From: Bryobacterales bacterium
GTDB lineage: Bacteria; Acidobacteriota; Terriglobia; Bryobacterales; Bryobacteraceae
Length of the DNA stretch: 64,000 nt
Reading direction: 5' to 3'
NCBI GenBank assembly: GCA_963703295.1
Contig: OY969810.1
Coordinates: 6,814,001-6,878,000 of the forward strand
Shown here: positions 12,001 through 15,000 of the stretch, one piece after another
Position numbering within the stretch: position 1 is the first letter of the stretch
How the letters are laid out: each line of letters begins with the position of its first letter
Program-made: the position numbers

Positions 12001-15000
12001 GAATGTCTCTTCGATTGTTACTTCAAACATTGAAAAACTTCTCCACGTGGTCGATGCTGGTGGTAAAGCTGTAATCCGGCAGGCTGTCGAAAAATACCTG
12101 TCCGTAACGCTGCCTGGTAATCCGGTTATCCAGCAAGGCCAGCACGCCGCGGTCCGACTTACTCCGGATCAGCCGCCCGAAACCCTGTTTCAGCGCGATG
12201 GCAGCCTGCGGAATCTGGTAATCGTAAAAGGGATTACCCCCCGCTTTGCGAATGCTCTCGATGCGCGCATTCACCACCGGGTCGCCCGGCGACGCGAATG
12301 GCAGCTTGTCTATGATAACGCAGCTCAATTGCTCGCCAGGAACATCCACGCCCTGCCAAAATGACGCCGTGGCGAACAGCACGCAGTGCGGCGTAGAACG
12401 AAACTCATCCAGCAGCGCGCTGCGCGGACCCGTGCCCTGCAACAAAGTGGGATATTCCAGATCGAACGATACCGCCTCATAAACCAGACGCATTTGCTGG
12501 TAACTGGTGAAGAGCACGAACGCGCGGCCGCGGCTATGTCCCAGGATGCGTCCCACCTCTTCGGCGGCGAGTTTGGTGAATGCCGGGTCGCGCGGATCGG
12601 GCAGACGTTGGGGAACATAAAGCAGCGCCTGCTTTTGATAATCGAAGTGCCCCGGAACGATCAGCGTGCGCGCGCCCGAAACGCCCAGACGTTTTTCGGC
12701 GTAATCGAACGTTCCGGCGACGGCCAGGGTGGCCGATGCCATCACGATCGTTTCCATCTTGTCGAACAACTTCTCGGAAAGGATGTTCGATACGTCGATA
12801 GGGGTGGCCTGCAGGTAGGTGCCGCGCCCGCGCTTCTCTAGCCAGAAGACGTAGCGCTCGTCGTCCTCCTCTTCCATCAGGAAGCGTAGGCCCATCGAAA
12901 GCTCGCTGGCGCGGCGATACAGCGGCAGGATTTCCTCGGGTGGATTTGCCAATAGCTTGAGATGCGAGCCGATGAGATCGAGCGAAGCGATCAGGTCGCC
13001 GTAAATCTCCTCGTTGTCCTCGCGAAAGGCGTCGCGGCCCGTGAACGCCACCCGCCGCTCGGCCTCTCCAAAGAGACCAAAAAATTGCGCCGAGATCTCG
13101 TCGAGCCGTTGCAGGACGCGGTCAAGCTCCGGCGTGCCGAATTTCTTTAAGCGCCCCACAATCGAAATGTCGCGGCGAAGATCCTGAATCCGGTAGTTAC
13201 TTACCGAGACGCCGAAGTATTCTCCCGCGACGTTTTCGATCTCGTGCGCCTCATCGAAAACCACCGCGTGATAATCGGGCAGAATACCGCCTTCGTAGTT
13301 CTCGTCTTTGAGCGCCAGGTCGGCGAAAAACAGGTGGTGGTTGACGATGATGATGTCGCTTTCGGCGGCGCGCTGGTGCATCAAGGTGATGAAGCAGCGT
13401 TCGTAATTCGGGCACTTCTGTCCGGTGCAGAGATCGCTGCGGGCATCCACTTTGGCCCACGCCGCGCTGCCTTCGGGCAGCGTCTTGATCTCGGCGCGGT
13501 CGCCGAACTCGGTTGTCTTTTCCCACTCCTGTATGATCTGGAAATCCGCGACCTCCTCCAGCCCAGTCAGCACCGCCTCCTTGTCCGCATCGTAGATCTT
13601 CTGGCGGCATGCGTAGTTGTTGCGGCCTTTCATGTAGCAGACTTTGAGCGGGCGCGAAAAATGCTGCTGCAGGAAGGGAACGTCCTTGAAGAAGAGCTGC
13701 TCTTGCAGGTTCTTGGTGCCCGTCGAAACCACGATGCGCTTGCCCGAAAGCAGGGCAGGCACAAGATACGCGAGGGTCTTCCCCGTGCCGGTGCCCGCCT
13801 CCACAATCAGGTGGCGTTTTTCGGCGAGCGCGGCTTCCACGGCCTCCGCCATCTCCACCTGGCCGCCGCGAAACTCATAGTTGGGATGCCACTTGGAGAG
13901 CGTCCCGCCAAGCCCGAAAAATTGACGTGCGGAGGCAGAACGGACCTGGGCGGGCATCGGATGCTCCGATTGTAACAACCGGTGGCGCCGCCCGCGATTT
14001 CGCTGGTGTAGTGTCCATGAAATAGCTGGACAAATCGAAAACCGAGCCCCAGATCGGCGTTCATCGGTGTGAATCAGCGGCCATACAGTTCTGGGGATTT
14101 CTGCCGATCCATTCTGTGGGCCGCCGATTCACGCCGATGAACGCCGATCACACATGCCTGGACTCCTTAACCGAGAAGGTACTGGCTGCAGTGTTCGCAG
14201 TTTCCAATACGCTGGGTGTGGGATTTCTCGAGAAGGTCTACCAACGTGCCTGGCTTAGAGAATTGGGTCTTCGAGGCATCCGCGCAACCGCAGAGGCCTC
14301 GTTTGCCGTGGTCTACAAGGGGTATTCCGTGGGAGAATACTTTGCGGACTTGTTGGTCGAGGACGTGCTGGTGCTCGAGTTGAAATGTGCCGAACGCCTT
14401 GCCAACGAACACACTGCTCAATGTCTTAACTATCTCCGGGCCTCGGGCCGGACCGTGTGCCTACTCGTCAATTTCCAGAAACCCAGAGTCGAGTGGAAGC
14501 GAATCGTTCTTGGTTTTCCCGACCAGATTCAGGCGCCAGAGACCCAGGAATAACTCGAATTGTTTGTCCATTTATTTATTGGACACGACACTAGACGAGC
14601 CCGCGCGTCGCTACGGCGCGCGATATATTTCGCGCCAGCCGCCCGTAGGTATGACCACGCCGATAATAATTCCTACTAAGGCGCCAAAAGGCGTTCCGGC
14701 CTCTTTCCCCAAGGGCTCATTGCCTTCGATGCATTTCCCCGTGCATCTGGCATCCGCAATGGTCCCGAGGATCAGACCGCCGGCCGCTCCAATGCCAAAG
14801 CCGAGCAGCGTGTTCCGCAAACGGTGTCCTTGGGTCTTCACCAACACGCGCGAAACTGTGGCGCGCGCCAGTCGCTGCTCGCCGCTCGTTGTGGCGATCA
14901 CGAGAGCCTCGTTATCGGAGCGCCTGAACTGCCCGCGATACCGCTTGTTGTCCGTGGTCCTCGCTTCTATTTCCGCGCCTGCGGAAAGCCCCGGGGCATT

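Follow-up and report, generated by a model that had tools for sequence, protein, structure and literature searches.

The window analysed here is a 64,000-nucleotide (64-kb) stretch of a Bryobacterales genome. On its forward strand, positions 14003–14594 hold a non-autonomous element of 592 bp, delimited by sequence comparison, in which a hairpin and a GxxExxY gene lie inside IS630-like ends. The two inverted ends, also identified by comparison, are 32 bp long each; the left one (14003–14034) is degenerate and begins with four bases of the IS630 target form with one difference, and the right one spans 14563–14594. Between them, on the same strand, follow a left hairpin arm of 31 nt built of three 10-bp words (14052–14082), an inter-arm spacer of 36 bp (14083–14118), a right arm of 31 nt (14119–14149, RNA pairing predicted) and the GxxExxY/PDDEXK_3 gene itself (14137–14553; 138 amino acids). 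The element has the beginning of a yoaA helicase gene on one side and a hypothetical gene on the other.

The initial annotation described a hairpin of 10-bp tandem words at this site, and we found exactly that. The arms are 94% complementary over 31 nt, the hairpin fold has a z-score of −9.7 with none of 200 shuffles equally stable, and the 64-kb window contains 7 word pairs where 0.09 are expected. In 24 relatives, the counterparts of the spacer are 40–53 nt long as cut by script (most 49–53), with a near-constant core motif. A promoter in this conserved spacer was considered and rejected, as the spacing looked unlike sigma-70 by eye. Rfam gave no match in 13900–17200. The start codon does lie in the repeat, as had been stated, since the ATG at 14137 falls inside the right arm, and pairing of the two arms in RNA is predicted to bury it. 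The gene had also been placed in the loop of the hairpin, which is not its position here: it runs out of the upstream hairpin and lies outside the loop, and no downstream arm follows it in the three genome copies that reach its 3' end.

Four copies of the element are present in the genome, 92–96% identical and with unrelated flanks. Two are intact, the third is missing its right end and carries a 1-bp deletion near codon 113, and the fourth stops at codon 52. The earlier tally of three genes and a broken fourth therefore had the number of copies right, but the third gene is broken too, which leaves two intact. The genome also carries six IS630 elements at 99.8–100% identity, with a transposase matching NF033545 at 260 bits. 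Their ends are related to those of the 592-bp element (4 mismatches in 24), so that the element shares its terminal inverted repeats with an autonomous IS630. The gene copies had already been recognized as a passenger wrapped in IS630 ends, and the two 32-bp ends and the six related IS630 copies agree with that. Among 80 close loci, IS630-like ends occurred near the gene in 10 and on both sides in 2, against a background of 7 in 1,774 windows. IS630 duplicates a TA target; at 14003–14594 the right end fits this, the left end is worn, and no clean empty allele was seen in the relatives. In relatives the element is absent from beside yoaA, with no match crossing the junction (8 of 9 loci read). 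Soil-metagenome contigs stop exactly at 14594 in two runs while other contigs span each junction, as expected of a real multi-copy element. No joint skipping the element was seen in contigs of four DNA runs, although such contigs show presence, not absence.

The window protein scored 125.8 bits against the TIGR04256 HMM (cut-off 35) and 127.9 bits against PF13366 (cut-off 22). Its structure model (pLDDT 92) has a PD-(D/E)xK core fold, and the top fold matches are members of that superfamily: Cas4 SSO0001 (Z 8.4, rmsd 6.4, 107 residues aligned), LHK and lambda exonucleases (LHK-Exo at a Foldseek E of 7.5e-5), restriction-type domains and Hjc (Z 6.7, rmsd 3.5, 88 aligned). Among Cas4, LHK, lambda exonuclease, RecB, AddAB and Hjc no single match stands out (Z 8.4, 8.1, 8.0, 7.8), and the substrate is not readable from the fold. 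A sequence search of the PDB returned no solved close relative, only one chance hit (E = 1). Residues E32, D71, E81 and K83 are conserved in at least 90% of 85 sequences. Q95 and Y99 are conserved too, and form a QxxxY that we take to be the RecB/Cas4-type motif. On the basis of fold and residues, GxxExxY is a predicted PD-(D/E)xK nuclease; the 138-aa protein is without an obvious specificity domain.

The median dN/dS against relatives was 0.07 (25 unsaturated pairs out of 42), and genomes had 1–27 matches to the gene, with fragments common. Purifying selection together with many fragments is compatible with a gene that persists by spreading itself, and also with useful cargo. The family is large (11,342 PF13366 representatives at 50% identity). 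The portion of PMC3424549 available to us lists PF13366 with function "Unknown" and multiple transfers, and that of 10.1101/2021.01.26.428298 mentions it only beside a reverse transcriptase.

The initial annotation also counted 23 gene-less hairpins, or solos, dispersed between the genes of this genome. They are dispersed and mostly intergenic, but the count has to be revised: the strict pattern gave 23 overlapping matches at 13 distinct places (0 in three shuffles), and BLAST from seven seeds gave 39 copies of at least 40 bp among 46 merged hits. The solos have their arms in the reverse order to those of the gene's own hairpin. Of the 39 copies, 31 show under 20% overlap with a crude ORF set, even though that set covers 89% of the genome. 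A generic scan found no 7-bp-word hairpins in this genome, and one tblastn match beside a solo (E 0.15) was weak and taken as chance.

What had been overlooked is the outer flanks of the solos. Both ends lie within 3 mismatches of IS5-type cores in 23 of the 39 copies, whereas none of 300 random positions qualified even with 4 mismatches allowed. A further 7 have one clear IS5-type end, 6 are fragments of the same families and 3 are free of IS5 ends. Thirty-six of the 39 thus belong to two IS5-ended families, A and B, of about 115–145 bp with conserved inner flanks. The window contains a half copy of family A at 16999–17070 (found by sequence comparison, no strand assigned), a single arm with a worn end. 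It sits upstream of an ORF at 15852–16859 that looked GAPDH-like by eye. An IS5 element in the genome has ends similar to those of the solos, with a better fit to family A (2 mismatches in 13) than to family B. When the two end motifs were traced across GTDB, they continued into IS5 transposases at 34 of 123 loci for one and 38 of 123 for the other, and enclosed the present hairpin at only 1 and 0, which indicates that the ends are those of IS5 and that the hairpin is cargo. Both families thus share their ends with autonomous IS5-family elements.

IS5-type insertion duplicates a 4-bp YTAR. Among the 23 complete solos, YTAR fits 16 on the left, 15 on the right and 11 on both sides, and in 8 the two flanks are identical. 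The congeners are too diverged to show an exact empty site. The IS5-ended copies have a mean identity of 83–85% (maximum 92%), so their transposition is old or they have changed fast since. Two congeners also carry IS5-ended hairpin copies, and none of 68 solos viewed in other genomes had IS5 ends; the IS5 wrapping of hairpins is local. The three IS-free solos sit after stop codons, at rpsK-rpsD, at rpoB-rpoC and at a GspE/GspF-type pair. At these junctions congeners have the same hairpin, different hairpins or none. Since most carry some hairpin, the three look inherited or replaced rather than newly inserted.

In the wider family, the gene is regularly enclosed by arms. Loci from the phylum were chosen by protein score, and 18 of the 30 had both arms around the gene, compared with 0 of 230 displaced control windows, and 23 exceeded the control 99th percentile of the inverted score. 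In 14 of those 18 cassettes the best match of the left arm was the cassette's own right arm (mean score 22.6 vs 10.8). The usual cassette consists of a word run, the gene and a mirror run, sited directly after a stop codon; the words are 8–10 bp long and their sequence varies by locus. Among close relatives, 59 of 80 loci were usable (21 were dropped for a truncated gene or short flank): 43 had an arm at the gene start, 11 had the arm-gene-arm layout and 20 had an upstream hairpin as at 14003–14594. The own-arm advantage was weak in this set, coming first in 4 of 11. The claim that in relatives inverted arrays flank the gene on both sides therefore holds for 18 of 30 phylum loci and 11 of 59 close ones.

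We also started from the repeats. One arm pattern alone occurs in about 9,500 GTDB stretches. Of 80 GTDB arms from many phyla (those of 126 loci with full flanks), 48 were solos, 5 were GxxExxY cassettes, 3 enclosed non-recurring content, 19 were partnerless and 5 were too short. GxxExxY was the only recurring loop gene in this survey. In viral contigs, where 80 of 159 loci had full flanks, 9-bp-type arms had the gene within 1.5 kb in 0 of 80 cases, and 18 were solos. Family-wide, then, the full element is a gene in the loop of an inverted array, with solos probably derived from it, as first proposed; the part of that proposal that made the gene the mobiliser of this genome's solos is not supported. 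We regard the cassette layout and its capture by DDE ends as very probably correct, and the derivation of solos from cassettes as nearly so well founded.

The hairpins track the gene across genomes, which upholds the genome-level association reported initially. Of the relatives, 13 of the 19 with the gene have the hairpin pattern, as against 0 of the 21 without it. In the phylum sample, whose tallies count the unpublished genomes G088, G063 and G185 as rows although none of the conclusions depends on these, it was present in 26 of 56 gene-bearing versus 6 of 94 gene-free genomes. Five or more matches were seen in 13 of 56 versus 1 of 94. Reversed-pattern controls gave 0. Fisher p values were 1e-8, 2e-6 and 3e-6, which are overstated because kin are not independent. 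The association has exceptions on both sides: 30 of the 56 gene-bearing phylum genomes match neither of two hairpin patterns, and the gene-free genome G064 (94% complete) has 10 hairpin matches.

Genes of a four-helix-bundle family, for which we know of no nuclease activity, served as a control. The same arm-gene-arm layout, with 7–8-bp words, was present in 25 of 26 of their loci (4 of 30 were dropped). From the layout alone, then, it does not follow that the loop gene is the engine. The words themselves do separate the families, as GxxExxY words occurred at none of the 26 four-helix-bundle loci. The two families tend to share genomes: four-helix-bundle genes were found in 40 of 56 GxxExxY-bearing and 48 of 94 GxxExxY-free genomes. 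Among genomes bearing the four-helix-bundle gene, hairpins were present in 23 of 40 with GxxExxY versus 5 of 48 without it. Genomes with GxxExxY and no four-helix-bundle gene had hairpins in only 3 of 16 cases, a rate that points to permissive lineages. The pairing of words with genes, and an association that persists among four-helix-bearing genomes, favour a specific tie between GxxExxY and its hairpins.

Two orthologous operon junctions each harbour a mixture of alleles: some have an intact gene, some a decayed one, some are gene-less and some empty. The first, of leuC/leuD type, was read at 22 loci (1 of 23 was dropped), which comprised 6 full-length genes, 3 broken and 3 partial ones, 8 sets of arms without a gene and 2 empty alleles, the latter 9-bp spacers; the words differ among alleles. 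A Shine-Dalgarno-like stretch was noticed by eye on both sides of this junction. The second is a thiolase/3-hydroxyacyl-CoA dehydrogenase junction in one genus, for which 11 of 41 genomes gave no locus and were left out. Its 30 loci divide into 8 full-length genes, belonging to two kinds of cassette, 2 decayed genes, 6 solos and 14 short alleles. The solos were of two word types other than those of the gene cassettes. A tree of the thiolase flanks, with the junction excluded, rejected monophyly for each of the four allele groups examined (p-AU 7e-4 to 4e-7), the groups having been named after the first tree was seen. This conflict could come from ordinary recombination, and the "empty" thiolase allele, itself scattered, may be a worn remnant. 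No clear target duplication was found at IS-free cassettes, and the thiolase alleles differ over the whole spacer including the ribosome site.

How might cassettes and solos have spread? Within this genome, the recent copies of the gene and the solos are likely the work of the IS630 and IS5 transposases. The strictest form of the initial proposal, in which GxxExxY itself copied this genome's solos to new sites as a RAYT would, is very improbable in our judgement. It draws on the solos having the gene's word class, on many-solo genomes nearly always bearing the gene, and on the three solos here without IS ends. Those three sit at junctions that hold hairpins in most congeners, and the other 36 are members of the IS5-ended families, whose inner flanks are conserved, with YTAR fits at 16 left and 15 right ends among the 23 complete copies; for these 36 we reject GxxExxY as the copier. 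The gene copies, in turn, lie in IS630-like ends, and the gene here is outside its hairpin. The model is largely refuted for this genome. We rate almost as low the idea that the host keeps these structures as stems that process or stabilise mRNA at operon junctions, with the allele patchwork produced by ordinary transfer and loss and no element-encoded drive today. IS-free solos after stop codons in core operons, which congeners share or replace by other hairpins, speak for it, but empty and minimal alleles at the same junctions mean that the stem is dispensable, and both the conserved nuclease in the loop and the word-gene pairing are left unexplained.

A weightier rival, though still on the unlikely side, is that hairpin cassettes of every kind (GxxExxY, four-helix bundle and others) owe their movement to one external agent, be it host recombination, an enzyme from some other element or DDE ends. 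GxxExxY would then be cargo, silenced by its arms in the manner of an rRNA intervening sequence and kept for an addiction- or defence-like role. The identical layout around four-helix-bundle genes and the co-occurrence of the two families speak for it, as does one rpsK-rpsD junction that has 10-, 9- and two 7-bp-word hairpins in six congeners. So does the present genome, in which insertion-sequence ends carry the gene and 36 of 39 solos as cargo, and so does the Coxiella IVS, whose ORF, according to the accessible text of PMC4990558, is apparently not made in vivo. Against it, each gene family keeps its own word class, 9/10-bp solos follow GxxExxY even among four-helix-bearing genomes, and the catalytic residues are retained, with strong purifying selection on the gene, though many copies decay.

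We instead lean, with confidence a little short of even, towards the nuclease as the driver of spread. Being Cas4/RecB-like, the enzyme would cleave DNA of its own word class where this is extruded as a hairpin or cruciform; recombinational repair would then replace the whole intergenic stretch, a homing-like process that would leave no clean target duplication. Loss of the gene from the loop would give rise to solos, and RNA pairing of the arms would hide the start codon and hold expression down. For the present locus, we give even chances to the combined reading that it is an IS630-ended passenger copy of such a cassette, that the predicted nuclease spreads cassettes and solos among junction alleles, and that IS630 and IS5 did the recent copying here. 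The broadest version can be put forward only tentatively: GxxExxY might be the engine behind a hitherto undescribed kind of selfish DNA spread across the prokaryotes, reading tandem-word hairpins by shape and word and installing or swapping cassettes after core-operon stop codons through recombination, with neither transposase nor target duplication, while four-helix families compete for the same junctions and IS5/IS630 ends take parts as cargo.

Whatever moves it, the cassette class is widespread, real and new to the literature searched, and through it an orphan nuclease family gains a substrate that can be tested. That literature yielded no paper that connects GxxExxY with repeats; most subscription papers lie outside it, as do supplements such as those of PMC3733652 that list repeat families. 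Linking PF13366 to a defined DNA substrate makes the family directly testable, and the link would explain a common class of intergenic hairpins that reshapes operon junctions such as rpoB-rpoC and rpsK-rpsD. The nesting within IS5 and IS630 ends carries a further message, namely that copy counts from a single genome may indicate the wrong mobiliser.

Several known systems resemble parts of this one. For free-standing homing endonucleases, a single site can have alleles that are intact, decayed, lost or empty, in conflict with the tree of the flanks and without clean target duplication. The GxxExxY junctions show the same range of alleles, discordant with the flanks at the thiolase junction and without a clean duplication. 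Unlike homing endonucleases, GxxExxY uses many unrelated sites and has no evident sequence-reading domain, and its system includes the hairpin arms and solos. In this genome the copies resemble IS630/IS5 MITEs and passenger-carrying non-autonomous elements in having the terminal inverted repeats of autonomous IS630/IS5, short YTAR/CTAG-type flanks and no transposase. They differ from such MITEs in that their cargo is a second selfish system and that they are diverged (83–96%) beside IS630 elements at 99.8–100%. The ORF-bearing intervening sequences (IVS) of 23S rRNA (S23p/four-helix bundle), as far as the accessible text of PMC4990558 describes them, also place a short ORF within the loop of a long stem that is part of a host transcript; this ORF is poorly expressed and undergoes reductive evolution. 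GxxExxY cassettes, in contrast, lie between protein genes, encode a predicted nuclease and have dispersed gene-less copies.

The closest parallel is with REPIN-RAYT and TIRtron/TIRYT. In the parts of the sources open to us (PMC3116915; 10.1101/2021.07.10.451892; PMC3733652), these are likewise short extragenic inverted pairs with a variable spacer and many copies, with a cognate gene between the same repeats, dispersed gene-less copies and repeats that track the gene. The arms of GxxExxY cassettes differ from those of REPINs in being tandem 8–10-bp words, not short palindromes, and the enzyme is PD-(D/E)xK according to family scans and fold, not HUH/Y1. RAYTs are, from the same partial sources, single-copy, vertical and non-jumping, whereas the GxxExxY gene is multi-copy, often broken and variable in site, with alleles discordant with their flanks. 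The suggested PD-(D/E)xK counterpart of RAYT-REP is therefore apt for the link between repeat and gene and for the extragenic inverted pairs, but not for the enzyme class or for a single-copy, vertically inherited gene. If the nuclease does drive movement, it would represent a repeat-spreading chemistry unlike that of RAYT.

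Hairpins at the junction between rpsK and rpsD were varied, with five different ones among six congeners (loci L279 and L700–L704). They were built of 10-bp words, of 9-bp words or, in two kinds, of 7-bp words, and the remaining one was a minimal stem. Around the GxxExxY gene, the arms stood in reverse order at three loci (L029, L246 and L262), which shows that either interval of an alternating array can house this gene. Single arms also occurred at the front of unrelated host ORFs, where they contributed a start codon (ATG) in frame together with several codons (L456, L457, L476 and L480).

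At residue 39, the GxxExxY copy in the window (14137–14553) carries Trp instead of the Leu that is found in the family consensus and in the genome's three other copies. Judging from this substitution in its sequence, the copy may be impaired. The window also carries a TMEM175-family potassium channel gene (15218–15835), which immediately adjoins the helicase gene yoaA in two congeners, and a 192-aa ORF (9833–10411) that by eye resembles a Uma2-type nuclease.

The sole four-helix-bundle gene of the genome under study (G000) is interrupted by that genome's matching IS5 element (G000:C1:2405949–2407610), approximately 4 kb away from the third GxxExxY copy. Gene-less hairpins in the congener G004 (L359–L378) have long outer flanks in common that are of a non-IS5 kind, and they form a further composite repeat family. 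In another genome, G006, the copy of family B (solos with IS5-type ends) at L383 looks identical to G000:C1:2776388, flanks included, possibly because the sequence was transferred recently or because its contig was mis-binned.

Other phyla have miniature elements with IS5-type ends too, and these were frequently about 130–140 bp in size (L117, L120, L121, L140, L144, L176, L181 and L186). By eye, these same elements appear to contain assorted REP-like hairpins, which suggests that palindromic repeats have been captured repeatedly.
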